A stretch of 64,000 nucleotides of DNA. It comes from a virus. Taxonomy: Duplodnaviria; Caudoviricetes. Position 1 is the stretch's first letter. Every line of letters begins with the position of its first letter. Under the pieces are notes generated by a model that was not told where the DNA came from, made no database searches, and saw nothing but the letters and a program-made list of their open reading frames with translations. The position numbers were made by a program, and so were the translations under genes. Of the stretch, positions 1,905 through 53,012 are shown in pieces. The stretch is taken from IMG/VR virus record IMGVR_UViG_3300027858_000004, positions 64,001-128,000 of that record, one strand, 5' to 3'.

Positions 1905-3620
1905 GTGATTTACACATTAAAAGGTGAGAATGATATATTCAATCCTCTAGAGCAAGTATTAAAGAATCGTGAAATTAAAGACATACAAAAATTCCTGAAT
2001 CCTAGTATAAACGATTTAATCCCATATAATGCACTAAGAAACATGGATAAGGCTATTTATTTACTCTTAAGACACATTAGAGACAATAGTGTCATAGGTG
2101 TTCTAGTAGACCCAGATGCCGATGGAATCAGTAGTTCAGCAAGCTTCGTGTCATATATTAAAAAAGCGTTTCCTGAAATTGAATTAATATTCTACATGCA
2201 CTCAGGAAAACAGCATGGTTTAACTACTGAGATAGTAGAGCAGATTCATGAAACTCAACCAGACTTATTAGTTATTCCAGATGCTGGTTCCAACGATTAT
2301 GAGCAACTTGAAGAACTAAATAAATACCTAGACCTTTTAATTCTTGACCACCATGAATCAGAAAAAGAATCGGAACATGCAATTGTAGTTAATAACCAAC
2401 TGTCTCCTGAGTATGAAAATAAGAGTCTATCAGGTGTTGGTATTGTTTATAAGTTTTTAAAAGCATTAGATGACAAACTAGAATTAGACTATGCAGATGA
2501 ATATTTAGATTTGGTTGCGCTAGGAAACGTTGGAGATGTTATGAGACTAGATGTTCCTGAGACTAGATATTTGGTTTATGAAGGTCTTAAAAACATTAAG
2601 AATGAGTTTCTATTAAACCTAATAGCGAAAAATGCTAAGGACGTAAAAGAAATAACACCGAAAGTATTAAGCTTTAAGATTATTCCTCAGATAAATGCGA
2701 TGATTCGTGTGGGAGACGCAGAACAAAAGCTAGATGTATTTAGAGCTATGGTTGGAGAGCAAGAAGAGTTCTTTAATACTCGCACGAAGAAGACTGAAAC
2801 ATTGCCACAGAAAGCAGCTAGACTTTGTACTAATGCCTACGCTAAGCAAAGACGAGTGAGAGACAAGTGGACTGAGATAATCAAACTACAGATTGAAGAA
2901 CAAGAGCTTGATAAGAATGCTTTCATTGTGTTAAACGTTGATAACTTTGATAAAGAGCTTTCAGGATACATTGCTTCCAACCTCACAGGAATTTATAAAA
3001 AACCTGTTTTATTAATGAGTTGGAACGAAGAGTCTAAGTCCTATACTGGAAGCCTACGTGGATATGAAACAGTAATACGTGATTCTAAGTCATTCCTTAA
3101 TTCATTGGAAGCATTTGAATTTGTTAGTGGACATGCTAATGCGGCTGGTTTCTCAATTAAGAAAGATGAACTAGAAAAACTACCTGATTTAATTAATGAA
3201 AAAATGGAATATACGAATGCCGATTCAGAGCCAACAGAAGTTGACTTTGTGCTAACTGAAAAAGGTTTGACTTTAAACCTTATAAACGATATAATTAAAT
3301 ACGAAGGACTTTGGGGATTCGGGGCATCAGAACCATTGTTTGCTGTAAAAGATATAGAGGTAGACGTTTCTAAAATTATTATTAATAAGCTAACTGGTAG
3401 ATTTATGCTAAATGGAATAGAGTTCATTCAGTTCCAATTAAATGATAATCTAGTGGAGTTGGCAGGTCAGAATAAGATTGCAACATGTGATTTTGTTGGG
3501 AAAGTCAATGTGAACAATTGGCTAGGAAAGGTAACATCCCAGTTCATAATAGAAGCTGTTGATATTAAAGAAACGAAAGATAACGACCTTACATTTGATT
3601 TGTTTGACTTGTTTGGATAA
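1905..3620 (+). CDS. recJ: RecJ-like ssDNA exonuclease (DHH family; SPbeta YorK-like)
   Basis: DPDADG, DHH, SGVG, GSLRG and GHANAAG motifs. Confidence 0.9.
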   Translation: MIYTLKGENDIFNPLEQVLKNREIKDIQKFLNPSINDLIPYNALRNMDKAIYLLLRHIRDNSVIGVLVDPDADGISSSASFVSYIKKAFPEIELIFYMHSGKQHGLTTEIVEQIHETQPDLLVIPDAGSNDYEQLEELNKYLDLLILDHHESEKESEHAIVVNNQLSPEYENKSLSGVGIVYKFLKALDDKLELDYADEYLDLVALGNVGDVMRLDVPETRYLVYEGLKNIKNEFLLNLIAKNAKDVKEITPKVLSFKIIPQINAMIRVGDAEQKLDVFRAMVGEQEEFFNTRTKKTETLPQKAARLCTNAYAKQRRVRDKWTEIIKLQIEEQELDKNAFIVLNVDNFDKELSGYIASNLTGIYKKPVLLMSWNEESKSYTGSLRGYETVIRDSKSFLNSLEAFEFVSGHANAAGFSIKKDELEKLPDLINEKMEYTNADSEPTEVDFVLTEKGLTLNLINDIIKYEGLWGFGASEPLFAVKDIEVDVSKIIINKLTGRFMLNGIEFIQFQLNDNLVELAGQNKIATCDFVGKVNVNNWLGKVTSQFIIEAVDIKETKDNDLTFDLFDLFG

Positions 3621-9019: not shown

Positions 9020-10300
9020 ATGACAAATATTGTGTCGATATATGCTATAGCTCAGAAAATAAAAAATACACCAGGTAAAAAAGCTAAAGAGGCATTACTT
9101 CAAAAGCAAGTAGATAATGATGACTTTAAGAAGTTTCTAAAATTTGTTTATGACCCTTCATTAGTATATGGATTACAAGAAAAGAAGATAAAGAAATTCT
9201 TAGGACAATCAGAAAGTAAAGAGTTAGGATTTAATAATATATTCCTTTTATTTGAATATTTAATAGAAAATAATTCAGGAACAGATAAGAATGCTATGAA
9301 AGTTGCCCATTTTATCGACAAGCAAGAAGAAGAGCACAAGCAATTTGTACTTGAGGCTATTACTAAAACGCTAAAACTGGGTGTTGAGAAGACTATTTCC
9401 AAAGTGTTCCCAGATATTATTGAGCAGTTTGAAGTCATGCGAGGAAAGTCATACTCAGATTACAAGAATAAAATTAAAGGTAGGCTGTTCGTTCTAGCAG
9501 AAAAGAAGAACGGAATACGTTGCATCACTGAAAAGAAAGGTGATTCAGTGCTATTCAAGACTCGTCAAAACAAGATTATCAGTGGCTTAAATGGCATTCA
9601 TGCCGAAATGTTAGCGCTAGACGATGGAATATACGATGGTGAGTTAGTTATCAAAGAATCATGGAAGTATAAACTTCGTGATGTATTACAGCAAACAATG
9701 AAAATTGTGAACTCCGATGATGAAGATAAGATTGTTGACTATTGGATTTTTGATTTACTAACTCCTGATGAGTTCCATGTAACTGTTGCAAGCAGAAACT
9801 ACTTTGAGCGTAGAGATAGTGCAGTGTTGTCATTGAATAAGCATGAGCTTAATCATGTTAAGATGATTCCTGAGCTATATCGTGGAAAAGACTTAGATGT
9901 AGTGGACAAGCTTCTAGACGAGGTTGTTGAAGAAGGTAAAGAAGGACTAATGATGAACTTTGACTTACCATTTAAAACAGGAAAGACAAATAACATTCTT
10001 AAAATTAAGAAAAAGTACTCTTCTGATTTAAAAGTTATCGGATTTGAAGAAGGCAAAGGTAAAAACAAAGGCAAGCTAGGAGCATTAATCTTAGACTATA
10101 AGGGATTCCCACTAGGCTGTTCTGGTATGACTGATGAAGAGCGAGTTGAGATTTGGAATAATCAGGCTAAGTACTTGGGAGTAGTTGTTGAAATCACTCA
10201 TGAGCAAGAGTCAACCAACGATAAGGGTGGAGTATCCCTAGAATATCCAAGTTTTGAAATGTGGAGATTTGATAAGGACGAAGTAAGTTACGCTCATTAA
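9020..10300 (+). CDS. lig: ATP-dependent DNA ligase
   Basis: EKKNGIR (motif I), YDGEL, IFDLL, EGLM, KIKK, OB domain. Confidence 0.9.
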   Translation: MTNIVSIYAIAQKIKNTPGKKAKEALLQKQVDNDDFKKFLKFVYDPSLVYGLQEKKIKKFLGQSESKELGFNNIFLLFEYLIENNSGTDKNAMKVAHFIDKQEEEHKQFVLEAITKTLKLGVEKTISKVFPDIIEQFEVMRGKSYSDYKNKIKGRLFVLAEKKNGIRCITEKKGDSVLFKTRQNKIISGLNGIHAEMLALDDGIYDGELVIKESWKYKLRDVLQQTMKIVNSDDEDKIVDYWIFDLLTPDEFHVTVASRNYFERRDSAVLSLNKHELNHVKMIPELYRGKDLDVVDKLLDEVVEEGKEGLMMNFDLPFKTGKTNNILKIKKKYSSDLKVIGFEEGKGKNKGKLGALILDYKGFPLGCSGMTDEERVEIWNNQAKYLGVVVEITHEQESTNDKGGVSLEYPSFEMWRFDKDEVSYAH

Positions 10301-10331: not shown

Positions 10332-10997
10332 ATGTATATGAATAAATTTAAAATTGGTGACAAAGTTGTACCTATTGATAAAACTCGTGGAAATGGACTG
10401 CGCTCTTCAGCGCATTGGGCAATGGCTAGAGACATGAATCAGCCGTTTCTTTATGTGAATAGTTGTGGGAGTGAACATGTTTATGCATGTGGATACAGCA
10501 AGTCGACTGTGAGTGGAGATTTTTTCAATGAGGTTGATTTAATACTATACGAGGAAAATACTATTGACCCTAATCTGCCTAATATCACAGAAGGACAAGC
10601 AAAGATTATTGAGCATCTTAAGGAATCTTGGGGAGAGCTAACAATGATTGAGCTTCATCTTTCTGGAGACCACTGGACTAGTGAGAGAAATATTTTAAAT
10701 ACAATTGACCCACTAGAATTCATTAAAGCTGTTACATCAGGATACAACATAGTTAAAACTGGTCTTGAGTGGATTGCAACCCCTGATGAATTAGAACTTA
10801 ATGGAATAATAATTAGAAGTAATTGGGATGACTGGAATAAGGCAAAAATAGAGTATAGAGCACAGCCCTCGGACTCAGAGCATAACAGACCCTTCTATAT
10901 TAATATAAAAAATGATTATACGGGCTTCACAATTGACGATGCGAAAGAACTAAAGGATTACTTAATACAAAAAATAGAATACTTAGAAAGCGAATAA
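10332..10997 (+). CDS. hypothetical protein
   Basis: GGAGG RBS, long ORF. Confidence 0.75.
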   Translation: MYMNKFKIGDKVVPIDKTRGNGLRSSAHWAMARDMNQPFLYVNSCGSEHVYACGYSKSTVSGDFFNEVDLILYEENTIDPNLPNITEGQAKIIEHLKESWGELTMIELHLSGDHWTSERNILNTIDPLEFIKAVTSGYNIVKTGLEWIATPDELELNGIIIRSNWDDWNKAKIEYRAQPSDSEHNRPFYINIKNDYTGFTIDDAKELKDYLIQKIEYLESE

Positions 10998-11035
10998 TAC
11001 TCGACTTTTATTAAGAGAAGAAAAGGGGATTAAAA

Positions 11036-11395
11036 ATGAAGAGAATAGAAAAAGAAAGCATGGGATTCGCTGATGGCATGTTATATGGAATGGGATTCCC
11101 AAATACAGGCTTTAAACAGGTCGATTGGATAAGAGCAAAAGAGATAATAGAAGTTCATAAGAAGGATATCGTTTCAGTGAGTGCAGGATTAGCAGAAGAT
11201 TGGGACTATACATCTGGCGAAGTATGGAATAGTGTAGAGGGCTATATTAAACAAGAAGACACATATGTTTATGCCTGTAGTAAATGGGCAACACCTGCAT
11301 TAGAAATTGAATATAAAGATGGCACTGAAAAAACAATTGAATGCTGGATAGATGGAGATGACTCTAGCAGCTATTTTGACCTGTCGGATATATAA
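11036..11395 (+). CDS. hypothetical protein
   Basis: ORF with RBS. Confidence 0.75.
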   Translation: MKRIEKESMGFADGMLYGMGFPNTGFKQVDWIRAKEIIEVHKKDIVSVSAGLAEDWDYTSGEVWNSVEGYIKQEDTYVYACSKWATPALEIEYKDGTEKTIECWIDGDDSSSYFDLSDI

Positions 11396-11406
11396 GGAGA
11401 GATAAC

Positions 11407-11745
11407 TTGGAAATACTATCTACAACAACACACATGGGAGAATATATTTTCTATATTCTCTTTGCTTCTCTGATGTCATTAGTGCTTTTAATAGCGACCG
11501 TTGCTGGTTTTGTTGAGATATTCCATTATAAGAACCGAGATAAAGAAACTATTCTCGTAACGTTGGGAATATTAATATTTACACTATTAATTATGACAAA
11601 TGGCGCATTCATTATTAAAGATGGAGCAATAGTAACGCATGAAGCAAAGGTTACTGATTGGAACGAAGTTTACGAACAAGACTATAAAGTAGTTAAACAA
11701 AAAGGCGAATTAATAACAATACAATCAAACAAATGGGGGAAATAA
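11407..11745 (+). CDS. membrane protein
   Basis: two TM segments, RBS. Confidence 0.7.
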   Translation: MEILSTTTHMGEYIFYILFASLMSLVLLIATVAGFVEIFHYKNRDKETILVTLGILIFTLLIMTNGAFIIKDGAIVTHEAKVTDWNEVYEQDYKVVKQKGELITIQSNKWGK

Positions 11746-11746
11746 C

Positions 11747-12103
11747 ATGAATCAAATATCAAATGAAGCATTAGAATTTTTAGAATATGCAAAAAAGGAA
11801 TTCACAGACAATCCAAAGTGGTCAACAACCAGAGATGGTCAGTTTATTGGACTTCGAGGCGGCTTCAGAGAAGATTGCATTACGGTTTATGAGCTGGGAA
11901 ATGAGGTAGGACAATTCACTGAGGTTCTACCAAGACAACACCTAACTTTTGTTGAGTATGATGAGTTAGTTAAATATAAAGACCTTGTTGATAGAATTAA
12001 GCGTACCCTTGAAGTTAGAAGCATATTTGAAGTGAGTGCTTATGACGAAGCACTAAATGTCATTTTAGAAGAGCTAAATAAAATTAACTTGGAAACAAAA
12101 TAA
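11747..12103 (+). CDS. hypothetical protein
   Basis: ORF with RBS. Confidence 0.7.
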   Translation: MNQISNEALEFLEYAKKEFTDNPKWSTTRDGQFIGLRGGFREDCITVYELGNEVGQFTEVLPRQHLTFVEYDELVKYKDLVDRIKRTLEVRSIFEVSAYDEALNVILEELNKINLETK

Positions 12104-12123
12104 TATTATTGGAGGACACCCCA

Positions 12124-12579
12124 TTGATTAGAATTCTTAGTGGAGACCTATTAGAAGCAGAAGAGGATGTTATTGTACATCAAGTTAATTGTCAATCTAG
12201 ATTTGGCTCAGGCATTGCCTTACAGGTTAGAAATAGATATCCTTCTGCATATAAAGATTATATGGACTTCTCATCAGGTAAAAGACCAATTGATTTACTG
12301 GGGAAAGTAGTGTTGTCTCCGATGCCCAATCACAGATTTATTGCACATCTGTTTGGTCAGTTGAATTATGGATATGAGAAGAGAAAATACACTAGTTATG
12401 ATGCCCTTTTTGATGGATTAACCTATATTAAAAACTCAGCTAAAAAGGCAGGAAAGTCTATAGCCATCCCATATAGATTAGGTTCCGATAGAGGTGGAGC
12501 CAATTGGGAAATAGTATATAAAATTATTGGAGATGTGTTTTTCGATTACGATGTAACCATCTATAGGTTGGAGGCGTAA
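12124..12579 (+). CDS. macro domain protein (Poa1p/DarG-like ADP-ribose hydrolase)
   Basis: GDLL..IVHQVNC...GSGIA and IAIPY.LG..RGG.NW motifs; TTG start after GGAGG. Confidence 0.85.
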   Translation: MIRILSGDLLEAEEDVIVHQVNCQSRFGSGIALQVRNRYPSAYKDYMDFSSGKRPIDLLGKVVLSPMPNHRFIAHLFGQLNYGYEKRKYTSYDALFDGLTYIKNSAKKAGKSIAIPYRLGSDRGGANWEIVYKIIGDVFFDYDVTIYRLEA

Positions 12580-12580
12580 G

Positions 12581-12946
12581 ATGAATAAATTAGAATCCCT
12601 AGAAAAACTTTTGGAAACAATAGAAACAAAGGACAAGCTTGTCACTGGAAACTACTGTAGAGGTGAGAACAATTGCGTCATTGGACATCTCCTTAAGATT
12701 GGGAATGTCTCACAAGAGCAGCTAATCAAAATTGACAAGGGTGTTTACGGACATAGTTATGCAATTGGCACTATCTTGAGAGACGGCAAGCTAGATTTCG
12801 TTAATGATAGTTTGGTATCATTAGGTTTTGCTATTGAGTCGGATATAGATATTTTAGAAGGTTTACAGTTAGTTAATGATTATCAGGGTACTAAAGAGGT
12901 AAAAAAACATCTTAAAGTAATAATTCAAAGACTAAAAGAAGAATAA
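12581..12946 (+). CDS. hypothetical protein
   Basis: ORF with RBS. Confidence 0.7.
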   Translation: MNKLESLEKLLETIETKDKLVTGNYCRGENNCVIGHLLKIGNVSQEQLIKIDKGVYGHSYAIGTILRDGKLDFVNDSLVSLGFAIESDIDILEGLQLVNDYQGTKEVKKHLKVIIQRLKEE

Positions 12947-12970
12947 ACGCAAGAATATCAGGTTTTAACT

Positions 12971-13044
12971 AAAGTTTGTGAAATTCAATTGACGCAATTC
13001 CCTATACAATGGGCATTTCAATTTTGGATTTCACAAACTTTTTT
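12971..13044 (+). ncRNA. long hairpin/terminator with conserved apical motif (copy A)
   Basis: 18-bp stem with one G-U pair, core CCCTATACAATGGG, T-tract. Confidence 0.55.
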
Positions 13045-13091
13045 CATTAAAATTGGGATTTTATTAATTTATAAATATCATAAACTATGTA

Positions 13092-13120
13092 TTGACAAAT
13101 GATGTGAAGTAGTGTAATAT
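13092..13120 (+). promoter_or_regulatory. sigA-type promoter
   Basis: TTGACA-17bp-TAATAT. Confidence 0.7.
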
Positions 13121-13152
13121 AATAATTAGATAAGACGAAGGGAGATGTGGAG

Positions 13153-13320
13153 ATGATTCCTAAAGTAGAAAGAATATATCGGACTAACAATAGTCCAAAG
13201 CATACACAGCAGGAGCTTAAAAACTTAGAGAGAAATATTAAACCCAGAGAAGTGCAAGAATCAAAATTTATAATCATGGAGAGCTATCTAGACAGTTTGA
13301 TTTCAGAAGGAATATGCTAA
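13153..13320 (+). CDS. small hypothetical protein (55 aa, not in ORF track)
   Basis: RBS plus MIPKVERIYRTNN... read by hand. Confidence 0.55.
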   Translation: MIPKVERIYRTNNSPKHTQQELKNLERNIKPREVQESKFIIMESYLDSLISEGIC

Positions 13321-13350
13321 ATTAAAAACTATTTAATTTAAATTAATGAG

Positions 13351-13605
13351 GTGGAAAAAGTGATTCCAAATGAACCAATTACACTTGAAAAGTTAAAAAA
13401 GCTAATTGAGGATATGGCTCCCTATGGAAATAATTACACCAAAGTGAAAATGAATGAAAGATATTTTAATCACTTGATATTAACTGGGGTTGCTACTGGT
13501 ATCAGAGATAAAAGAACACGACCTATTTTCATAGGAGTGCCGATTGAATTTGATAATAGTATAGAAACATTTAAGTTTATAAAAGAAGGGGAGAATGAAG
13601 AGTGA
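13351..13605 (+). CDS. hypothetical protein
   Basis: ORF track. Confidence 0.65.
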   Translation: MEKVIPNEPITLEKLKKLIEDMAPYGNNYTKVKMNERYFNHLILTGVATGIRDKRTRPIFIGVPIEFDNSIETFKFIKEGENEE

Positions 13606-14006
13606 GCGAAAAACTATCAGAAAAGATATGGGAACAGTCATCTGAATGGATTGACCAAATTGGAGTAGTAATTGGAGGCTTAGCAAAGCAGCTTGGTGTG
13701 GCAACAGAGCATGTCTACACTGTTTACACTAAGCAAGTATTTTTTGAGGGAGTTATATATGCATCTGCAACAGCATTTTTCCTATTAGTTTTGATATTAG
13801 GCAATATTATTACATGGTTTGTAACTAGAAATTCTTATGGAGAAGAAAAATGGGTAGCAAGAATAATAGCAGCAGTTGTTTTGCTGTTCGTTGGTAGTCT
13901 TATTACGTTTGAAGTCTTAGTTCCAAATCTATTAAAAGCTTTCAATCCAGAATATTACACAATTAAAACGATAGTAGACCAAATAGGAAGTATGTTGAAC
14001 AAATAA
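13602..14006 (+). CDS. membrane protein
   Basis: LA.QLGVA.EHVY motif, TM segments, NPEYY motif. Confidence 0.75.
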   Translation: MSEKLSEKIWEQSSEWIDQIGVVIGGLAKQLGVATEHVYTVYTKQVFFEGVIYASATAFFLLVLILGNIITWFVTRNSYGEEKWVARIIAAVVLLFVGSLITFEVLVPNLLKAFNPEYYTIKTIVDQIGSMLNK

Positions 14007-14037
14007 TAAAATGAATTTAAAAAGGAGATAACTTACA

Positions 14038-14198
14038 ATGACGGGTATTTATATTTTAGTAGTGATAATTCTCAATGTCGTAGAAAAAGTTCCACAAGCG
14101 GTAGAAGGAGTTAATACAGTTATAAACGCAAATTTAAGCGGGGAAAAAATGTTTTGGATTGGCTTTTTGATTGCAGTTGTTCTAGATATGATTTTTGA
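14038..14198 (+). CDS. small membrane protein
   Basis: AAGGAG RBS, hydrophobic ORF read by hand. Confidence 0.45.
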
Positions 14199-14230
14199 CT
14201 AAGAAAAATAGATTGAGAGGTAACATAAAT

Positions 14231-14431
14231 ATGAAGCGTTCACTAGTTATTTTGCACAATGATGATACGGAGCCAATTGAATTGGAACTAAAAAAAGCAA
14301 CACAAGTTAAATCAGAGAGTGAATTTATTTATTTCGAAAAGATAAATGATGAGTGGAGACTAACATTTAGTACCTCTGCTATAGAAGATTTTTCCAAAGT
14401 CGATTGCTTACAGATTTTAAGAAATGATTAA
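14231..14431 (+). CDS. hypothetical protein
   Basis: GAGG RBS before ATG 14231. Confidence 0.7.
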   Translation: MKRSLVILHNDDTEPIELELKKATQVKSESEFIYFEKINDEWRLTFSTSAIEDFSKVDCLQILRND

Positions 14432-14445
14432 AGAGGGAGAAAAAC

Positions 14446-15090
14446 ATGGCTGAAATTAATTTAATTGATGAAAAAACTGATTTATCACAGCTTAAAAAAC
14501 CTTATGGATGGGATTTAGAAGTAAAAGGTGTGCCATATGATATTTATCGTATAGAAGGATATAACCATACCATCGGTGGGAAATGGGGAGAAAACTGCTT
14601 TTGGGCTTGCCCATCAGGTGAAAAGCCTTCATTTGAAAATCTCATAGAGTTCAATGGAGATGCACCTACTTGGGGGATATCCTTTGAGCGAGTTAATTAT
14701 ATAAAGAGCAAATGGAATGAAACCTCTGTGGAAACTAGTGGAGATTGCTGGATAACACGTAATGGGAAGAAGTTTTATCACATTTCTGGTAGAAGTATGG
14801 ATTATGCATTGGCTAAAGCGCAGCATTTATTGGTTCAACTTTTAGAAGAATGTCCACTTTATCTATCTGATAGAAATTGGAAAGAACAGGCTATTGGACG
14901 TAAGATTTGGTATGAAAATCAGCCCGCTATTATAACTAGTATTACTAGTGGAAACGAATTGTGGATAGAACCTGATGGCATTCCTTGCTTTAAAGCGCCC
15001 CCTCACTGGGACGACATGGACTATGATGATTATGCAGATGGGCTACGAGTAGGGTTATTATCGCCTGATATTTATTGGTATAGAAATTAG
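14446..15090 (+). CDS. hypothetical Trp-rich phage protein
   Basis: long ORF with RBS. Confidence 0.8.
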   Translation: MAEINLIDEKTDLSQLKKPYGWDLEVKGVPYDIYRIEGYNHTIGGKWGENCFWACPSGEKPSFENLIEFNGDAPTWGISFERVNYIKSKWNETSVETSGDCWITRNGKKFYHISGRSMDYALAKAQHLLVQLLEECPLYLSDRNWKEQAIGRKIWYENQPAIITSITSGNELWIEPDGIPCFKAPPHWDDMDYDDYADGLRVGLLSPDIYWYRN

Positions 15091-15128
15091 TAATATCAGG
15101 ATATTATTAAAAAGGGGAGAACAGATTA

Positions 15129-15647
15129 ATGAATATAATATACTTAATATTAGCAGTTATATTAGTGGTAACTTTAGTAATTTTTATATCTTCAAGTCTT
15201 TATTGGAAGATGATAGATTTAGAAGATTTGGCATCATCATTCGGAATTGGGATTATTGTAGGGGCTATAGCTGCTTTACTTATACTAATTTATGGATTTA
15301 CTGCTGATGGAAAATTATATAAAAGTGAAACGTATGAAATTTCAGCTATTAAAGACAATTCAAATGTATCAGGAAATAGTTTCATAGGAACAGGCTACGT
15401 TAATGAAAGCCAATATTATTTCTATATTCTAGAAACTAAAAAAGGCAAGAAAATGCACAAAGTCCATATTGGTGATGCCTATTTAAATGAAGGTGATTAC
15501 ACTCCTTATGTAGATGTGTACGATTATAAGTATAATAGTAAATTCGCTCAATGGTTATATGGTAAAAACAAATACGATGATTATGAATTTGTATTCTTCA
15601 TACCTGAAGATACTGTCACAACCGAATTTAATGTAGATATGGAGTAA
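15129..15647 (+). CDS. membrane protein
   Basis: two N-terminal TM segments. Confidence 0.75.
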   Translation: MNIIYLILAVILVVTLVIFISSSLYWKMIDLEDLASSFGIGIIVGAIAALLILIYGFTADGKLYKSETYEISAIKDNSNVSGNSFIGTGYVNESQYYFYILETKKGKKMHKVHIGDAYLNEGDYTPYVDVYDYKYNSKFAQWLYGKNKYDDYEFVFFIPEDTVTTEFNVDME

Positions 15648-15667
15648 TAAATAGGAGGAAACATTCA

Positions 15668-15865
15668 ATGGAAACAGTAACGCTATGGGATAAATTAAAA
15701 CTACAAATTGATAACTTAGAATTAATGCATGAGCAACATAAAGCAGGACAAGATGTTAGCACTTCAGTATATTGGCAAGTTGAATACATTCATGAGATTT
15801 TAAGTAGTTTAGAGGATAAATTAGGGGCAAGTAAAATACGTGGCGAATATATTGATTTAGATTAA
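15668..15865 (+). CDS. hypothetical protein
   Basis: AGGAGG RBS. Confidence 0.7.
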   Translation: METVTLWDKLKLQIDNLELMHEQHKAGQDVSTSVYWQVEYIHEILSSLEDKLGASKIRGEYIDLD

Positions 15866-15899
15866 TATTCGGTAATAGCTATGAAAGGGGGACTAGCAA

Positions 15900-16331
15900 A
15901 TGAGCAACACGATGAGTCTAAAAGGTGGATTAAATATGTATGCAGGATTTGGTGAAAGATACGAATCAGATATACCACCTGAAGGAAGAAAAGTATTTTA
16001 TATGCAAAAGAATGGATTTGACCATCATCAGGAACATGCTAATAAATACTTTAAGAAGAACGATGTGCTTACTATTAAAGAAATATATGTAGGAAGAAGC
16101 AGCTCTGAAGTGGAGTTCGTTGAACATCCTAATCAGAAATTTAATACTGTTATGTTTGCAGATTTTGAGATAGGTGGTTATGTAGATAGCAGTGACGGTA
16201 TCCTTGCGATGCTTCACCTTCACCATGATTTTGTTTTACCGAAGAATGATGCTAGAAGAATTTCAAATGCTCATATAAATCGAATAGCTGAAACTCTTAA
16301 AAACTTAGATACACAGGAAAAGATAGATTAA
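15900..16331 (+). CDS. hypothetical protein
   Basis: ORF with RBS. Confidence 0.7.
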   Translation: MSNTMSLKGGLNMYAGFGERYESDIPPEGRKVFYMQKNGFDHHQEHANKYFKKNDVLTIKEIYVGRSSSEVEFVEHPNQKFNTVMFADFEIGGYVDSSDGILAMLHLHHDFVLPKNDARRISNAHINRIAETLKNLDTQEKID

Positions 16332-16379
16332 TAAAAGCAACCTATTATTAAAAATAAATATATAAATGGAGGAGACAGA

Positions 16380-16556
16380 ATGAATACCACACGACATATA
16401 GAATCGATAAATGGTCAGCCGCATGTAAAAAGAATATCAATAGAATTAAGACCAGATGAGGTTAAAGAACTAATAGACGCATTAAAAAATACGCATAATA
16501 GCATTCTAATTAAAAATATAGTTTTTGATTTGACAGGTCAATTATCATATTGTTAA
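16380..16556 (+). CDS. small hypothetical protein (58 aa)
   Basis: GGAGG RBS; fills the interval between sites 16331 and 16563. Confidence 0.6.
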   Translation: MNTTRHIESINGQPHVKRISIELRPDEVKELIDALKNTHNSILIKNIVFDLTGQLSYC

Positions 16557-16614
16557 TAGTTAATAAAATTAGGTTATTATTAAAAACTATTTAAACTAAA
16601 ATGGAGGAATTAGA

Positions 16615-16902
16615 ATGGGTAAATTAATATTAGGGATTATCGGTGTCATTGCAGGTATAGCTTTAGGATTGTACGTTGGAGTGTATCTGCTTTTAATAGG
16701 TGGAATTATGGGACTCGTTGAAGTAGTAAATGTTATGACCGATGGTGGAGCAGCAGATGGTGGACTAATTGCTTGGAGCGTTGTGAAGATGTTGTTCTCA
16801 GGTGTTGCTGGGAGTATTTCAGCTTATGTATTAGTTCTACCTTCATTAGCTTTAATGAGCGTGAACCTTGGTCACACATCAAAACGCAAGAAGCGTATAT
16901 AA
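16615..16902 (+). CDS. membrane protein
   Basis: Gly-rich TM helices. Confidence 0.75.
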   Translation: MGKLILGIIGVIAGIALGLYVGVYLLLIGGIMGLVEVVNVMTDGGAADGGLIAWSVVKMLFSGVAGSISAYVLVLPSLALMSVNLGHTSKRKKRI

Positions 16903-16917
16903 GAGGGAGAGATAAAT

Positions 16918-17124
16918 ATGAAAACAATTGAAGAAGCGATTCTAGAATTAAGAGGGTGTGGGGCTGCCATCCAAATTACTATTGATTGGGATAAGAGTCC
17001 AACTGTTCATGTATTTGATAGAAATGGAAAACTACATCAAACTAGTGGAATGGATGTTCTAACAGCGTTGCAATCTATGACACTGAAATTAATCCAACAG
17101 AACAATGAGGGGGAAAACAATTGA
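16918..17124 (+). CDS. hypothetical protein
   Basis: ORF with RBS. Confidence 0.65.
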   Translation: MKTIEEAILELRGCGAAIQITIDWDKSPTVHVFDRNGKLHQTSGMDVLTALQSMTLKLIQQNNEGENN

Positions 17125-17306
17125 TATCTGTTGGTACTGAAATATCTGAAACAGAAAAGTGTGGAAGTTGTCGCTCTAAAGATAGGGTTGTTAGAGTTGA
17201 AATTGGCAATGGGAATTATATATCCTTCTTCCACTTGTGCAGTCAATGCTCTAAAGAATTGCATACAAAATTGGAAGAGTCGAAGTCTACTATTGAAGGA
17301 GAGTAA
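17121..17306 (+). CDS. small zinc-finger protein
   Basis: CGSC...CSQC. Confidence 0.65.
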   Translation: MISVGTEISETEKCGSCRSKDRVVRVEIGNGNYISFFHLCSQCSKELHTKLEESKSTIEGE

Positions 17307-17313
17307 TAATAAT

Positions 17314-17505
17314 ATGAAAAACATATGGACGGCTACAGCACCACTTAGACGAAGTGATTTAGAATATTATGGTTTCACATTTTCTGCAAAAGAATTGAAA
17401 ACACCCACACTAGAACATTATTTCAAAAGTGTTCATATAAATCTATTTGCACATGGAACGTTAATGAGGGCAAGACATAGGCTGGGACTACCTATATACA
17501 ACTAA
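17314..17505 (+). CDS. hypothetical protein
   Basis: AAGGAG RBS before ATG 17314. Confidence 0.6.
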   Translation: MKNIWTATAPLRRSDLEYYGFTFSAKELKTPTLEHYFKSVHINLFAHGTLMRARHRLGLPIYN

Positions 17506-17775
17506 AGGGAGGAAATAGAATATGAAAGTTAAAAAGACACTTCATGAGGTCTATAGTGAGATAGTTAGATTAAGGGAGCAAAGAGACATGATGGGACAGG
17601 TCGCTACAGAAAGACCAGTATCATGCAAATATCATCACCTTTAATAATAGGGGGGATGATAATTAATAATCCTCTATCTTATTTCTTTGTAAGATTATAT
17701 GTAAGAAAACACATTAAAAACAATGTAAAGATAAAACGTGTAGAAAATAAGTGGAGATAAGAAGGGGGAATTACA

Positions 17776-18051
17776 ATGAGTAAAACAAAGGTATTATTAG
17801 CATATGGTGACGGTGACTACGGTGCAATGGACTTTGAGGAAAAGTTTAAAGTAAAAGATGTCTACGCAGAAATGTTAGAAAATAATGTAACTGAAATAGA
17901 CCTTATTCACGATTGTGGATATGGGGATGAAGAGATACATGTGACTCTCCATGAGTTTGCAGAGGTAGACCCAGAGTTTGTAGGATTTATATTTGAAGAG
18001 TTTATGGAATACGATAATTCAAAAGCTAAATGCTTTTATATTGTAGATTAG
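17776..18051 (+). CDS. hypothetical acidic protein
   Basis: ORF with RBS. Confidence 0.7.
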   Translation: MSKTKVLLAYGDGDYGAMDFEEKFKVKDVYAEMLENNVTEIDLIHDCGYGDEEIHVTLHEFAEVDPEFVGFIFEEFMEYDNSKAKCFYIVD

Positions 18052-18061
18052 GAGTGAGAAC

Positions 18062-18304
18062 ATGAAAAAATTAACATTACAATTGGAAAATATCGAAGGT
18101 GTAATAGAGCAAGAGAGTCAAATCAGTATGGGTGACAATGACATTTTAGTTATGCAGTATCCAGAAAGAATGACTCTAGCAGAGGCTTATGAGTCTTTTG
18201 AAATTTTAGAGAATTCATTTATAAACAATGTGAGTGTAATAGCAATGCCTTCTGACTTAACATTTAAGGTAATTAAAAACAAAAGGAGTGAAAAAGATGA
18301 TTAA
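18062..18304 (+). CDS. hypothetical protein
   Basis: ORF with RBS. Confidence 0.7.
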   Translation: MKKLTLQLENIEGVIEQESQISMGDNDILVMQYPERMTLAEAYESFEILENSFINNVSVIAMPSDLTFKVIKNKRSEKDD

Positions 18305-18482
18305 TGCACTACTATACGTTAACTATGTAAGACATGTTAGTATTTTTCTAAAGTCTTCACCAAGCGTAGGAGAACATATTTCTATTGAAGACAAAGCATA
18401 CAAAATAGAAAAAATAGTACACCATGAGTTGGATGCCAGTAAATTTGATTTAGAGCTTTATGTGGTAAGCGAAGATTATTAA
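18288..18482 (+). CDS. hypothetical protein
   Basis: ORF track. Confidence 0.6.
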   Translation: MKKMINALLYVNYVRHVSIFLKSSPSVGEHISIEDKAYKIEKIVHHELDASKFDLELYVVSEDY

Positions 18483-18513
18483 TAATATTTCCATTTTATA
18501 CAGGAGGTAAGTA

Positions 18514-18672
18514 ATGAATAAAGAATTAGATAAGGCTTTTGAAAGCTTACAAGATAATATGGTTAAGCAAGCTTTGATATATAAAGATACAAAGTTAGAC
18601 CCATTCTATCGTTTTGTAATAGGTAAAATGGATTTTAAAGAATGTGTAGATAAGGTTGCGAAAAACATTTGA
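18514..18672 (+). CDS. small hypothetical protein (52 aa)
   Basis: AGGAGG RBS; fills the interval between sites 18482 and 18672. Confidence 0.6.
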   Translation: MNKELDKAFESLQDNMVKQALIYKDTKLDPFYRFVIGKMDFKECVDKVAKNI

Positions 18673-18706
18673 TAAAATGCGAGATTTATAAAGGAGGAAT
18701 ATATAA

Positions 18707-19147
18707 GTGCAAGTTTATACAGATGAATTTATTGAAGCAATGGAGAAAATTGAAAATAACGTAGAGAAAGCAATATCAGATTGGATTAATAAAATAAATT
18801 TAGATTCCATGATAGAGTCTAGAAATATTTTAATTGGAGATAGCAATGAGTTTTTAAATGGATTTTTTGTCAACGCTAAAACACATAAAATAGATATTTC
18901 AAATGAAATTAATCTAGGAAGAAGAAATTCAATCGATGACATTAGCAAAGCGGTATGTAAAAAAGCTTTAAATGACTTACAAGAATTGATTGAAAAAAAG
19001 ATTGAAGAGTCTACCATTCCTGTCAATAGAGCTAGAGATGTAAGAAAGATTATAAAAGTTGCATACGAAGGGGCTCTAATTGAGTTAAACAGTCTAACTC
19101 TATGCTTAAAAATTGGCATCGAAGAATATAAGAAAACAAAAGATTGA
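18707..19147 (+). CDS. hypothetical protein
   Basis: AAGGAGG RBS. Confidence 0.7.
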   Translation: MQVYTDEFIEAMEKIENNVEKAISDWINKINLDSMIESRNILIGDSNEFLNGFFVNAKTHKIDISNEINLGRRNSIDDISKAVCKKALNDLQELIEKKIEESTIPVNRARDVRKIIKVAYEGALIELNSLTLCLKIGIEEYKKTKD

Positions 19148-19177
19148 CTAATGCGAATTTGATAAAGGAGGATTAAC

Positions 19178-19381
19178 ATGGAAGAGTCAAAATGGGCGAT
19201 TGTTGACAAGAAAACAGGCAAGTTCTTAGTAAGTAAGCTTTATACTCATAGAGGTACTGCACTGAATATCCTTAATAAAGGGCATTTCTATATCCCTGAT
19301 TTACATGAGCCTGTTGTAGTTGGCTTAAATCAGGCTTTAGGGTTAGCGTTAGCAAAAGCACAAACAGAAGTGAGAGATTAA
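19178..19381 (+). CDS. hypothetical protein (paralog of the next gene)
   Basis: K.TG..L..K.Y.H.GTA...N.G...IP...EPVV motif. Confidence 0.75.
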   Translation: MEESKWAIVDKKTGKFLVSKLYTHRGTALNILNKGHFYIPDLHEPVVVGLNQALGLALAKAQTEVRD

Positions 19382-19406
19382 TAAAACTTCTATTTTATAA
19401 GGGGAT

Positions 19407-32578: not shown

Positions 32579-32681
32579 AATAAAATGGAGATTTTACTGA
32601 TATGTATACAAAACTGTATACTTGTAAACTTGTGTACAAAATTGTATACATTAATCAGAAAATACAAGGGGAGAGATTAAT

Positions 32682-32816
32682 ATGAGAATAGCTATCGCTT
32701 TTTTACTGGCAGTGCCAATTTATAATATGGTTGAGTTTGGGTGGGGTTGGCTTTTAATAATTACATTGCAAATATTAGCAGGGTTGGACTTAGAGCTTTG
32801 GAACAGAAGCCGATGA
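32682..32816 (+). CDS. small membrane protein (44 aa)
   Basis: RBS plus hydrophobic ORF read by hand. Confidence 0.5.
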   Translation: MRIAIAFLLAVPIYNMVEFGWGWLLIITLQILAGLDLELWNRSR

Positions 32817-32968
32817 AGAAAATATTTAGAATCTCTGAAACAGAACATGCTATTCGCACTTGGAAAGTGGAAGCCGACAGTGAAGATGAGGCTCTATCAA
32901 TATTTGAAACAAAAGGTACTGTAATTGATGAGAAGCTTCTTGATTATGATTTGGAAATAATAGATTAA
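32813..32968 (+). CDS. hypothetical protein
   Basis: ATGA overlap; VEADSEDEA motif. Confidence 0.6.
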   Translation: MKKIFRISETEHAIRTWKVEADSEDEALSIFETKGTVIDEKLLDYDLEIID

Positions 32969-33055
32969 GAGTTTTTTACCGATAAGGTTACACAGGTAGA
33001 ATTCTACAGAGCTTAGAATGTCAATGTCAGCATCATAAAAAAGGGGAAGAGTAAT

Positions 33056-33496
33056 ATGAAACTAGAAAAACTAAGATTAAAACATATTGCAATAGATAAA
33101 GAGCTTAGAAAAGTAGACGATGAAATTTCAGTATTATTAGATGGAACATTTAAATATAACGGTGTATTGTGCTTTGTAGATGATTATAGCACAGATGAAG
33201 ATTTTATTCTACTGGGTTCGACAAATGGAAGTACAATATCTGGATTCAACAATCAAGTGTCACTAACATTTAGAGAATTTGAGGAAACTTTTAAAAGCCA
33301 CAAATATAAAATACATTTCTACAATGGTAAGGAATCGTTCGGAGAAGTTTTGTCGCTTTATAAGACTGTAGAAGTTGAATTTGATATTGAGCCTGACTCT
33401 GATGACACAATAATTCGTAAAGGTCTATTAGAATTGGGTACTTATCCAAGGTCTTACACCGCAAAAGTATATAAAATTGAAAAGGGAGATAAGTAG
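33056..33496 (+). CDS. hypothetical protein
   Basis: ORF with RBS. Confidence 0.7.
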   Translation: MKLEKLRLKHIAIDKELRKVDDEISVLLDGTFKYNGVLCFVDDYSTDEDFILLGSTNGSTISGFNNQVSLTFREFEETFKSHKYKIHFYNGKESFGEVLSLYKTVEVEFDIEPDSDDTIIRKGLLELGTYPRSYTAKVYKIEKGDK

Positions 33497-33739
33497 ATGA
33501 AATATGTACGTTATTACTTTACTTTTAAAAATGGATTAAAAGAGGACTATCTTATAGAAATTGAGCCTCACAAGATTGAAGAATATAAGAATGGATTAAA
33601 AGAGGTCAATTCCGTAATTTACAATTCAATGATGACTGGGAAGAGCGGTGTAATTAAACTAAAAACCGAATATGGATTGGCTCATATAAGAACAGACGAT
33701 ATTGTAAGTTCACTTGTCACAGGATTTTTAGAGCTATAA
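33497..33739 (+). CDS. hypothetical protein
   Basis: ORF with RBS. Confidence 0.7.
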   Translation: MKYVRYYFTFKNGLKEDYLIEIEPHKIEEYKNGLKEVNSVIYNSMMTGKSGVIKLKTEYGLAHIRTDDIVSSLVTGFLEL

Positions 33740-33752
33740 AGGAGGATATTAA

Positions 33753-33866
33753 ATGAAAGATGAAACTAAGAACTTAATAATAGCCTATGTAATGCTAACT
33801 ACAGCATTTTCAGCTCTTTGCTTTTTGATTGGATGGATTGGCTATGAAATAGGGATTAACAAATAA
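33753..33866 (+). CDS. small single-TM protein (37 aa)
   Basis: AAGGAGG RBS. Confidence 0.5.
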   Translation: MKDETKNLIIAYVMLTTAFSALCFLIGWIGYEIGINK

Positions 33867-33897
33867 AATTCTCGTATTATTAAAGGAGGTGTGGTAA

Positions 33898-34161
33898 TTG
33901 AGCAGTGATTTCCTCATAGATGAGAGCTTTACTATTGTTATTCCAGTAAGTGAAAAGCCACTAAAGATAATTCATGAAGCCTATAAAATTGAACCTACTG
34001 ATAATCCAATGGAATTTACATTATCAAAGAAAACTACAGTAGATGAAATGGCTACTAATATGAATATGAGTGTTGAAGAGCTTATGGATTTTTTAGAACA
34101 TGGTGAAAATTATTTAAAGGAGAATGACATTGAACAAGGAACAAACTCAACAAATAGTTAA
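33898..34161 (+). CDS. hypothetical protein
   Basis: AAGGAGG RBS. Confidence 0.65.
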   Translation: MSSDFLIDESFTIVIPVSEKPLKIIHEAYKIEPTDNPMEFTLSKKTTVDEMATNMNMSVEELMDFLEHGENYLKENDIEQGTNSTNS

Positions 34162-34558
34162 TTTACTCCACGAGGACTATCGAGATTGCAAAGTACAAAT
34201 AATCAAAAGTAAGAGTCAATTTATTAAATGGAAGATAGTGGAGCTAGTCAAGTTAAAATCTTTCGCCTTTATCCATCGAAAATATATTTGGAGCCACAGT
34301 AAAGAGGTTTTATCCAATGAGGTTGCTGGAAGCTATAACTCTAAATTAAAAAATATTCAAGTATATCAGTTTAGTATGCTTGAAGACTGCAAGGATTTGT
34401 ATACTTCTCTAGTATTGTTCCATGAGCTAAGACATCACTATCAAGATAAATATGGAAGATTAGACAGACATGACATTGAAGACGATTGCAACAGGTTTGC
34501 ATGGAAGATGTACGATAGGTACTATGCAGAGATAAAAAATATTCTTGAAATCAATTAA
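34124..34558 (+). CDS. putative zinc metallopeptidase
   Basis: HELRH (HExxH) plus downstream E.DCN.FA. Confidence 0.65.
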   Translation: MTLNKEQTQQIVNLLHEDYRDCKVQIIKSKSQFIKWKIVELVKLKSFAFIHRKYIWSHSKEVLSNEVAGSYNSKLKNIQVYQFSMLEDCKDLYTSLVLFHELRHHYQDKYGRLDRHDIEDDCNRFAWKMYDRYYAEIKNILEIN

Positions 34559-34589
34559 AAACTATATAAACTAAAAGGGGATTAATTAA

Positions 34590-35468
34590 ATGGAAACTAC
34601 ACAAAAGAAGTATCAATCAATTGAGCGTCATGGTAAATCAGGAACACATCTTACTATTGAAGGAAATCCACTTATTGTTATTCAGGAGAAGATTGATGGA
34701 GCAAATGCTTCTTTCCAAAGAGTGGGAGATGAAATCTTAGCATTCTCTCGCAACAATCAACTAGGACGAGATAATAAGAACCTACGAGGTTTTTATGAGT
34801 GGACTCAAACGCTAAATGTTAACGAGATGTCAGAAGGATTTGTACACTTTGGAGAATGGACAGCTAGACATAAAATTGATTACGGTGAGAATGCTAATAA
34901 GTTCTACCTGTTCGATGTTTACGAAATTAATAATAATAAATACCATGATTTTGATGTTGTCGAAGATGTGGCAGTGCTTCTTGCTATTAATCTAGTTCCA
35001 GTATTCTATAAAGGTGAATTCCAATCACTAGAACATATTCAATCATTCGTTGGTAAGTCTGTACTAGGTGATATCGGAGAAGGTGTTGTGGTTAAGAATT
35101 ACAAATACACAACTAAATTTGGTGAGCAAGTATTCACTAAATTTGTATCTGACCATTTTGCTGAAATCATGAAGATTAAAAAGCACAATGCAAGTAAGAA
35201 TTCAGACCCACTACAACAGTTCATTAATTCAACTTTAACTGAAGCACGAGTATCTAAGCTTATTCATAAGCTAGTTGACGAAGGTGTGTTGCAAGAAGAT
35301 TATGCTATTGAAGATATGGGAGCAATTCTAAAAGGATTGGGTTCTAGCGTATTCGATGACATAATTAAAGAAGAGTTAGATGAGCTTCTAAAGCTTGTTA
35401 AGGGTAAGGTTGGACGAGCTGTACCAAACATCGTTAAATCCATTCTAGCTGAAGAGGGAAGAGCCTAA
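34590..35468 (+). CDS. RNA ligase (Rnl2-like)
   Basis: QEKIDGAN, FGEW, FYLFDV, GEGVVVK. Confidence 0.85.
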   Translation: METTQKKYQSIERHGKSGTHLTIEGNPLIVIQEKIDGANASFQRVGDEILAFSRNNQLGRDNKNLRGFYEWTQTLNVNEMSEGFVHFGEWTARHKIDYGENANKFYLFDVYEINNNKYHDFDVVEDVAVLLAINLVPVFYKGEFQSLEHIQSFVGKSVLGDIGEGVVVKNYKYTTKFGEQVFTKFVSDHFAEIMKIKKHNASKNSDPLQQFINSTLTEARVSKLIHKLVDEGVLQEDYAIEDMGAILKGLGSSVFDDIIKEELDELLKLVKGKVGRAVPNIVKSILAEEGRA

Positions 35469-35551
35469 AAACTAGTTAAATTAAAATTAATAAAAATCAT
35501 ATTTTATCTTGTTTTTAAAAACTAGATATGTTACAATAAGGGAGTAAATAA

Positions 35552-43512: not shown

Positions 43513-43602
43513 TTAATAATATTCTCCTTTTATTCTATTTTTTGTAAATTAAAAACCCCATAAGTTGGGGCTCTCTGTTAATGCATATTAAATAATCTAT
43601 AT

Positions 43603-43630
43603 AAAAAGAGAGTTACCGAAGTAACTCTCT
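43603..43630 (-). terminator. intrinsic terminator with UUCG loop
   Basis: AGAGAGTTAC-TTCG-GTAACTCTCT-TTTT on the minus strand. Confidence 0.85.
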
Positions 43631-43635
43631 ACAAT

Positions 43636-45783: not shown

Positions 45784-45805
45784 ATCCTATCACATTGTAT
45801 TGTGA

Positions 45806-47560: not shown

Positions 47561-47606
47561 AAATCTTCATCTCCTTTGCATTGTATTGCAAATTTCTATT
47601 TTCAAT

Positions 47607-47656
47607 AAAAAAGAGATGTCCTAAAACTCCCATTTTACAGGGATTCTAGACATCTC
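47607..47656 (-). ncRNA. hairpin/terminator with conserved apical motif (copy C)
   Basis: GAGATGTC/GACATCTC stem, core CCCTGTAAAATGGG on the minus strand, T-tract. Confidence 0.55.
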
Positions 47657-47691
47657 AAATATCAGTAAAATAACTATTTTATCTTGTTACT

Positions 47692-48921: not shown

Positions 48922-48953
48922 AAATCCATCTCCTTTCTTTCAAAATAAAGTTC

Positions 48954-50189: not shown

Positions 50190-50228
50190 TCTCTCACTCT
50201 CCTATCTTTATAAAACTAAATAAAATAC

Positions 50229-51503: not shown

Positions 51504-51557
51504 AAATCCATCTCCTTCCTTTATGAAACTAAATAAAGTTCCCATTTTATTTCCATT

Positions 51558-51586
51558 AAAAAAGAAGTAGCCATATAGACTACTTC
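51558..51586 (-). terminator. intrinsic terminator
   Basis: GAAGTAG/CTACTTC stem plus T-tract. Confidence 0.7.
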
Positions 51587-52944: not shown

Positions 52945-53012
52945 TAAAACATCTCCTTTCTTTTGAATCTATAGTCAATAAATTTGACATTTTATCTTTA
53001 TTTAATTATTAT

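Follow-up and report, generated by a model that had tools for sequence, protein, structure and literature searches.

The 64,000-nt stretch analysed here (the window) corresponds to bases 64001–128000 of one virus contig, 166,074 bp long and 33% in G+C (IMG/VR record IMGVR_UViG_3300027858_000004). Gene junctions in its small-gene accessory region, and elsewhere in the genome, were marked by a short palindromic element with the core ATAAAA-N6-TTTTAT, which in this genome extended to the dyad TTA-ATAAWA-N6-TWTTAT-TAA. The element had a strict N6 spacing and was conserved family-wide, specific to this phage group and biased towards intergenic and accessory positions; it occurred in excess at mosaic boundaries and retained its 6-bp centre there. 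With moderate confidence, we regard it as a junction site bound by a dimeric protein, with a probable regulatory role, whose short identical sequence also provides the homology for module exchange.

Exact matches to ATAAWA-N6-TWTTAT numbered 11 in the window (0.30 expected), and 27 matches were found with at most one mismatch (7.05 expected). In the whole genome, 34 exact copies were present at a spacing of 6, compared with 0–4 at each of the spacings 0–5 and 7–15. Everted and direct arrangements of the half-sites were equally scarce in the genome (0–4 each). Given the strict spacing and the few everted and direct copies, A+T richness was ruled out as the cause. A symmetrised 24-bp weight matrix with a cut-off of ≥12 bits recovered 65 sites in the genome, against 2.3 expected per genome in third-order Markov sequence. 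With the null model trained on intergenic DNA alone, 47 sites were observed and 0.83 expected, with a maximum of 3 in 200 simulations. We also considered that the site might be part of a longer repeat; when the site contexts in this genome were compared all against all, an early-promoter module was the sole sequence they had in common.

Although 90% of the genome was coding, 52 of the 65 matrix sites were intergenic. The site density was 3.05 per kb in intergenic and 0.087 per kb in coding DNA, a 35-fold difference, and a stop codon lay at the arm edge of 28 of the 52 intergenic sites. Sites were present at 46 of 197 junctions (23%) without a conserved neighbour, that is, a gene conserved in distant relatives, and at 3 of 80 junctions (4%) with at least one (Fisher p = 4e-5). 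A first-pass annotation of the window, made from the sequence alone, had described the site as punctuating the accessory region and had named equal frequencies at core-gene boundaries and inside open reading frames (ORFs) as one observation that would speak against its interpretation. The counts showed an enrichment at accessory junctions, and no such equality was seen. The sites were not confined to the accessory arm: the structural arm carried eight junction sites in addition to intragenic ones.

The genome was placed among the SPbeta-like phages by its polymerase (PHP, DNA_pol3_alpha), RecJ-like protein, ligase, nrd gene, large serine recombinase and YomG-like tail protein. Its kinship to SPbeta was distant, with 51% identity between its polymerase and SPbeta YorL. 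Megablast of the region against phages gave no match, and a close relative was not found when the ligase and polymerase were used as single-protein queries against viral and genome contigs. Genes were on the + strand up to ~104.8 kb of the genome and on the − strand from ~104.8 to ~153.8 kb.

The 6-N6-6 word peaked in 11 of the 14 related large siphovirus genomes tested. N6 counts were 34 in this genome, 14 in SPbeta, 15 in phi3T, 12 in SPR, 19 in Goe13, 16 in SPbetaL4 and 15 in BUCT082; outside these, Mammaliicoccus phi6255 had 27 copies, a Staphylococcus SPbeta-like phage 11, the giant temperate siphovirus Tsamsa 20 and Geobacillus virus E3 19. The count was modest in Enterococcus phage 9183 (6), SEP9 had 5 copies and no clear peak, and the N6 peak was absent from Lactococcus phiL47 (1 site). 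In a blind count of all 5-mer dyads, first place went to TAAAA-N6-TTTTA or ATAAA-N8-TTTAT in four phages (SPbeta, Tsamsa, E3 and 9183), and in this genome the dyad ranked within the first three. A 7.9-Mb Paenibacillus genome contained 26 exact sites (reversed-pattern control, 4), 20 of which lay in a 110-kb part of the contig bearing an SPbeta-like prophage. A low-G+C contig end, which probably belongs to this prophage too, contained four others. Eight unrelated phage contigs had 1 exact site in 146 kb. Because the host chromosome and unrelated phages were nearly devoid of sites, the element marks this phage group and not its hosts. It was absent from the literature searched, a search that left out the 1999 SPbeta genome paper, the 2023 sro-operon paper and supplements.

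Two side observations were made during the comparison. ATAAWA-N9-TWTTAT was the top spacing after N6 in phi6255 (7 copies), the Staphylococcus SPbeta-like phage (4) and this genome (4, all intergenic), and may be a minor spacing class. A Streptomyces-labelled genome held 11 exact sites, 10 of them on a 133,358-bp contig whose YorL was 82% identical to that of SPbeta; this contig looks like an SPbeta-like phage genome, possibly a contaminant in a high-G+C assembly.

The A/U-rich site forms part of operon transcripts, after a stop codon and before a ribosome-binding site (RBS). A role at the RNA level was therefore considered, whether as a hairpin between cistrons, a processing site, a translational enhancer or a weak terminator. 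Some copies with extended arms did fold (site 15090: −4.8 kcal/mol, z −4.4). The arms as a whole did not behave like a stem. Positions 5 and 14, the sole variable arm position, paired in 38 sites, broke the pair in 25 and compensated in 2; thus 25 of the 27 variant-bearing sites of this genome broke the pair. Double-variant sites (ATAATA...TATTAT) accounted for 1 of the 34 exact sites; such rarity would follow if binding to a pair of weak half-sites were too poor. Upon RNA folding of eight sites, the arms folded onto each other in three (−0.6 to −4.8 kcal/mol) and in the other five they did not; four of the eight folded no better than shuffles. The sites formed no stable G+C-rich hairpin with a U tract and matched no known RNA family, and a scan of the window for Rfam families and tRNAs found none. 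Moreover, the dyad symmetry was perfect and the same word was used on both genome arms. Given the lack of covariation between the arms and their weak folding, we read the element as a dyad site for a predicted symmetric protein dimer on duplex DNA, and consider a function as hairpin or RNA extremely improbable.

The relation of the site to mosaic boundaries was analysed in six related Spbetavirus genomes, with junctions within 1.5 kb serving as local controls. In SPbeta, 13 of 19 sites were located ≤16 bp from a megablast homology breakpoint. A breakpoint was found at 11 of 15 SPbeta junctions with a site, compared with 69 of 195 junctions lacking one (p = 0.005). For 90 of 129 site junctions (70%) and 133 of 260 local controls (51%), one or more partner genomes shared a single flank only. 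At the level of genome pairs, the ratio of one-flank to syntenic cases was 237:126 at sites versus 287:471 at local controls. Of the 232 one-flank cases, 167 had a site directly beside the shared flank in the partner genome as well; in 90, the commonest class, homology ran on for 1–7 nt beyond the distal edge of the site. Whole units bounded by sites had been exchanged: a 908-bp unit shared by SPR and BUCT082 (98.7% identity) had sites at both ends and unrelated outer flanks, and the outer flanks of a 327-bp site-bounded unit shared by Goe13 and SPR (100% identity) were likewise unrelated. Another example was an interval of 1405 bp that lies between two sites, spans the mtbP methyltransferase gene and has no marker separating SPbeta from phi3Ts. 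In the comparison of SPbeta 116414 with phi3T 107931, the 18-mer was the only sequence in common.

These patterns bear on an alternative in which the site is purely regulatory or architectural (a silencer, roadblock, insulator or nucleoid-protein site) without any causal part in recombination, its link to mosaicism arising from placement at module ends in plastic regions. The evidence for a dimer site fits this alternative as well as it fits a junction site with a double role. An excess of one-flank cases that persists against controls within 1.5 kb, homology ends that cluster at the site's outer edge, and islands consisting of the 18-mer alone all count against it, and we consider it unlikely; further points on both sides are given below with the candidate readers.

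The 6-bp centre was compared after collapsing redundancy, using pairs that shared one 60-bp flank and differed in the other. It was identical or one base off in 46 of 49 non-redundant one-flank pairs. Among pairs oriented by transcription, the centre was the same in all 12 that had just the upstream flank in common and in all 14 that had just the downstream one. The centre was kept whichever flank was swapped (26 of 26), and the site therefore belongs to the junction and to neither gene. Within a genome, centres were no more alike than in shuffles, and their similarity was below the null mean in eight of nine genomes, though weakly (P 0.007–0.78 per genome). Centres shared between distant genomes were too weak a signal to use (14 identical versus ~5.4 expected over six genome pairs).

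Centre retention decided against the origin suggested in the first-pass annotation, namely that much of the accessory cargo was acquired as promoterless RBS–ORF–site cassettes; these would be similar to integron cassettes, each with its own site. The modularity itself was confirmed: single-gene units bounded by sites occurred at 16331–16580, 18482–18689 and many more places in the early region, and a few site-bounded units had been swapped whole between relatives. In being imperfect inverted repeats after promoterless ORFs in arrays, the sites also resembled integron attC sites. Inheritance of the site with one ORF was contradicted by both sets of oriented pairs, in which the site stayed with the junction. 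Nor did the arms pair as the folded single-stranded arms of attC do, and the two Phage_integrase genes of this genome were located elsewhere than the array. Sites also occurred on the structural arm and inside genes. The single cargo gene for which outside relatives were found, ORF 14446–15090 (214 aa, no known family), had homologues with ~75% amino acid identity in eight otherwise unrelated viral contigs of 23–63 kb, which contained only 4 matrix sites in 146 kb. Since its window neighbours were missing from all eight contigs, this ORF looks like a horizontally moving accessory gene, to judge from sequence comparison, and it appears to travel almost without sites. Cassette acquisition is accordingly very unlikely.

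In the reading we prefer, a phage-encoded symmetric dimer would recognise the two A/T half-sites, and its role would most likely be that of a regulatory site, roadblock or insulator, tied to the lysogeny module. The site lies at the ends of genes or transcription units; the left arm often supplies the stop codon, with the next RBS just past the right arm. Relatives keep the same site and centre at the same junction while swapping the flanking modules. The swap would take place by recombination inside this short stretch of identity, through phage annealing proteins or a dedicated recombinase.

Several points weigh against this interpretation. The mosaic counts from six genomes are non-independent; with single references, Fisher p values ranged from 0.003 to 0.27, all in the same direction. 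About half of the nearby junctions without a site were also mosaic boundaries, and compact intergenic gaps force any viable breakpoint to fall near a site. In the phi3Ts × SPbeta laboratory hybrids Hyb1–3, crossovers were located in blocks of parental identity of 1.4–18 kb, several of which started or ended at sites, and one crossover fell within 40 bp that lacked a site; ordinary homologous recombination is thus enough for exchange. The hybrids could not serve to place crossovers at sites, as the intervals of parental identity spanned 40 bp to 18 kb. The 13 of 65 sites that lie inside ORFs, including those in the recJ-like and ligase genes, are left unexplained by a pure junction role. The profile of proteins and motif across nine genomes, described below, is small and confounded by phylogeny. 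Finally, no close relative was found for this genome, and the junction role seen in SPbeta relatives is extended to it by inference.

Candidate readers of the site encoded by this genome included YopP-like and YomM-like Phage_integrase proteins, an MrpR homologue and a DndB-domain YopQ/SroE homologue. The two Phage_integrase proteins aligned with archaeal XerA through Arg, His-x-x-Arg, His and Tyr positions, which we take to be the catalytic residues. The YomM-like gene was located on the − strand at genome positions 134836–135801, in the late-gene arm, and the best-scoring site of the genome (23.7 bits) lay 15 bp upstream of it. YomM-like proteins were found in 140 phage records and in all nine genomes compared; some of the carriers are presumably virulent (Lactococcus 949 group, SEP9-like phages, Enterococcus Denvervirus). 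To our knowledge, no function has been reported for a YomM-like Xer-family recombinase.

Such a protein could act as a dedicated site-specific recombinase, with a YomM-like or YopP-like enzyme binding the arms and exchanging strands across a centre that serves as address. Dif-type Xer sites and Acinetobacter pdif modules have inverted recombinase arms and a 6-bp centre, and many copies bracket exchangeable modules. The layout of the element, inverted arms around a 6-bp centre at strict spacing, resembled theirs, and Xer-like recombinases occurred in every genome compared, those of this genome with the presumed active-site positions intact. Centre retention and the unlikeness of centres within a genome would also follow, and the Tsamsa report describes three tyrosine recombinases of unknown specificity. 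The arms fit less well: only 6–9 bp were conserved, compared with 11 in dif, and identical arms imply a homodimer, whereas dif has XerC and XerD halves. Sites and recombinase did not consistently occur together across lineages. The YomM-like protein of phiL47 was 47% identical to that of this genome (that of SPbeta was only 28% identical), yet the motif was absent from phiL47, which argues against the YomM-like protein as the specific reader; SEP9 encoded a YomM-like protein as well and showed no clear peak. In phiL47, another dyad, ATTAA-N8-TTAAT, had 8 copies against 1.0 expected, and may be a diverged counterpart in 949-group phages. No candidate reader's gene was consistently adjacent to a site in four genomes (this genome, SPbeta, phi6255 and the Staphylococcus phage), and in the latter three this held for the recombinase genes. 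The under-dispersion of centres was weak, and homologous recombination within an identical site equally predicts that centres are kept. A dedicated recombinase is thus a doubtful explanation.

A related and tentative possibility is an addressed module exchange, in which arms are common to all sites and each junction has its own centre, and a conserved enzyme or annealing at the identical 18–24 bp would recombine matching junctions only. If true, whole genes would be swapped in register between co-resident relatives with gene order kept, and unlike centres would guard each genome from internal deletions.

Regulatory proteins form the second class of candidate. MrpR-like proteins were encoded in all six strongly positive lineages (this genome, SPbeta, phi6255, Staphylococcus SPbeta-like, Tsamsa and E3) and were missing from three weak or negative lineages, so that strong presence of the motif followed the MrpR-like lysogeny module. 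This agrees with a regulatory function. Though it tracks the motif, MrpR binds SPBRE in SPbeta. SPBRE is the MrpR/SroF operator of SPbeta and lies inside promoters, according to PMC10516654, and bioRxiv 10.1101/2025.11.27.690993 describes MrpR as reading it as a monomer over 24–26 bp. Like the site, it is a repeated intergenic SPbeta element, with about 10–12 copies. Identity of the two was rejected: the SPBRE word is different (ACAAATAATATGTAT-like), and none of 12 mapped SPbeta copies coincided with a site. The upstream regions of ten MrpR-bound genes carried ACAAA(T/A)AATATGTAT, the 15-bp SPBRE word, and the blind dyad count in SPbeta returned SPBRE (ATACA-N7-TGTAT) as a dyad distinct from the site. 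Five of the 12 SPBRE copies had a site within 260 bp. In the SPbeta early arm (83413–129296), this applied to five of six copies, with a site 71–259 bp away, near yopV, yorE, yorM, yorZ and yosX, so that the site frequently brackets units under MrpR control.

Positions resembling those of terminators also agree with regulation. In the early region (genome 0.5–23 kb), ~26 promoters of the form TTGACA-N14-TGTGCTATAAT were present. Four of them had a site 12–14 nt upstream of the −35 box, and promoter 13978 had a hairpin 9 nt upstream instead. Site 13047 of the window lay between a terminator-like hairpin and a promoter. A second repressor, SroE/YopQ, whose targets are unknown, is described for SPbeta-like phages in bioRxiv 10.1101/2025.11.27.690993. 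Against this protein, and against a purely regulatory site, a YopQ-like protein was not detected in Tsamsa, which has 20 sites. The motif was also unchanged across phages of four host genera, which would be unlike operators that define immunity. The YonO promoter was rejected as an identity for the site: the start mapped upstream of yonK in PMC5467207 falls at ~60 kb in SPBc2 by rough conversion, and no site was found there.

Among known repeated operators, stoperators are asymmetric, oriented with transcription and bound by a monomeric immunity repressor, and they differ between immunity groups. The element resembled the stoperators of Cluster A mycobacteriophages (PMC9283540) in its dozens of copies of one short word in short intergenic gaps, often at stop codons and within operons. 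It differed in being a palindrome rather than an asymmetric oriented word, and in being one word across phages of Bacillus, Paenibacillus, Geobacillus, Staphylococcus and Mammaliicoccus.

The PeSLs of T4-type phages were a further point of comparison. According to Arbiol et al. 2010 (PMC2839356) and Comeau et al. 2014 (PMC4122927), PeSLs combine an early promoter with a stem-loop terminator; these short conserved elements are interspersed in hyperplastic regions of small ORFs, lie at indel or replacement breakpoints between relatives, and are proposed to mediate modular shuffling. The element likewise punctuated hyperplastic small-ORF regions at breakpoints, the breakpoints being those of Spbetavirus relatives and not of this genome. 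The promoter and stem-loop composite was not found, with only four of ~26 early promoters adjoining a site and hairpins being weak. In addition, the conserved sequence of a PeSL is continuous, whereas here two 6-bp half-sites surround a free 6-bp centre. If the site itself drives exchange, it would be the Gram-positive siphovirus counterpart of T4 PeSL shuffling with a different architecture.

Among temperate phages SPbeta serves as a model, and the circuit that controls it (MrpR/SroF, SroE, arbitrium) is actively studied. The site adds a second cis element of genome-wide distribution, which is the same in phages of Bacillus and Staphylococcus and in giant siphoviruses of the Tsamsa and E3 types. 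It offers a target for asking which DNA the second repressor, or the orphan Xer-like recombinases, may recognise, and it bears on how ~200 genes stay silent or insulated and on why mosaic boundaries fall exactly between genes.

Coordinates of sites, related strings and transcription signals in the window (scores are from the 24-bp matrix)
Feature	Position	Strand	Score and context
Strong match inside recJ-like gene (1905–3620; Pfam DHH/RecJ_OB)	2995..3012		18.1 bits
Strong match inside ATP-dependent ligase gene (9020–10300; Pfam)	9234..9251		20.6 bits
Junction site ATAATA-CTCGAC-TTTTAT	10994..11011		19.6 bits; stop of ORF 10332–10997 inside left arm
First-pass string AGAATA-TCAGGT-TTTAAC	12952..12969		−0.7 bits; not a motif member
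Terminator-like long hairpin and U run	12971..13041	+	−27 kcal/mol, z −5.8; ends upstream gene string
Junction site TTAAAA-TTGGGA-TTTTAT	13047..13064		18.4 bits; between hairpin and promoter
Sigma-A-like promoter TTGACA-17-TAATAT	13092..13120	+	Heads gene string from 13147 onward
Junction site GTAATA-TCAGGA-TATTAT	15090..15107		19.9 bits; first base is end of ORF 14446–15090 stop
Junction site ATAAAA-GCAACC-TATTAT	16331..16348		22.5 bits; first base is end of ORF 15900–16331 stop
Junction site ATAAAA-TTAGGT-TATTAT	16563..16580		21.2 bits; 7 nt past stop of ORF 16380–16556
Weak match GTAAAA-CAAAGG-TATTAT	17780..17797		13.9 bits; in first codons of ORF 17776–18051
Junction site ATAATA-TTTCCA-TTTTAT	18482..18499		18.6 bits; first base is end of ORF 18288–18482 stop
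Junction site ATAAAA-TGCGAG-ATTTAT	18672..18689		16.3 bits; first base is end of ORF 18514–18672 TGA stop
First-pass string GACTAA-TGCGAA-TTTGAT	19146..19163		−13.3 bits; not a motif member
Junction site ATAAAA-CTTCTA-TTTTAT	19381..19398		18.4 bits; between small ORFs 19178–19381 and 19407–19685
Three more + arm sites, starts 32580, 33863, 35490	Within 32580..35507		16.5, 20.3, 16.9 bits
Nine structural (−) arm sites, starts 43516, 47101, 47665, 49652, 50220, 51533, 52296, 52978, 53731	Within 43516..53748		13.6–20.3 bits; 47101, 49652 and 52296 inside ORFs

All ten strings listed for the accessory region in the first-pass annotation were present at the positions given there, and eight of them belonged to one motif (16.3–22.5 bits); those at 12952 and 19146 did not. 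Its description of most sites as overlapping the upstream stop codon and preceding an RBS held for six of the eight, the exceptions being 16563, which follows its stop, and 13047, which follows the hairpin. Within 10994–19398, the RBS came a few to ~25 nt after the site; at 10994, the RBS and start of ORF 11036 come next. The same annotation had seen no site among recJ, dnaE and ligase. None was present at the junctions of these genes, but the recJ-like and ligase genes contained strong internal matches (Table).

The single-gene unit proposed at 18672–19163 fell with the string at 19146. An alignment showed that this string has the centre and RBS of the 18672 junction in common (AATGCGA..TT.ATAAAGGAGGA), and it looks like a decayed direct repeat of that junction plus its RBS. 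The unit 18707–19147 was flanked by this ~25-bp imperfect direct repeat of site centre and RBS. Relatives of ORF 18707–19147 were searched for and none was found. ORFs 19178–19381 and 19407–19685, on either side of the last junction site of the region, were tandem paralogues (42% identity over 45 aa, E 2e-13). Pfam searches with ten cargo ORFs returned sub-threshold Macro and TetR_C matches only.

The promoter at 13092 was the sole 10/12 match on the + strand in 9000–22000. Between 13147 and ~22000, no further strong promoter and no + strand terminator were found, and most sites there are therefore operon-internal. Elsewhere in the genome, near-identical strong early promoters were located at 590–18642, at 21791–23010 and at 162.4–165.9 kb, all outside the window; 17 early promoters in the first 20 kb were perfect 12/12 matches with TG. 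A second dyad, (C)TATAA-N5-TTATA(G), was present in 26 copies, and in 18 of these its left arm was the −10 box of an early promoter. It was enriched in Tsamsa too (11 versus 1.0 expected), and is probably the operator of the phage's main repressor. At the switch between the two genome arms, an L-asparaginase gene (39173–40153; Pfam Asparaginase N and C domains) adjoined the large serine recombinase gene (37454–38971), and is probably lysogenic-conversion cargo near the attachment site.

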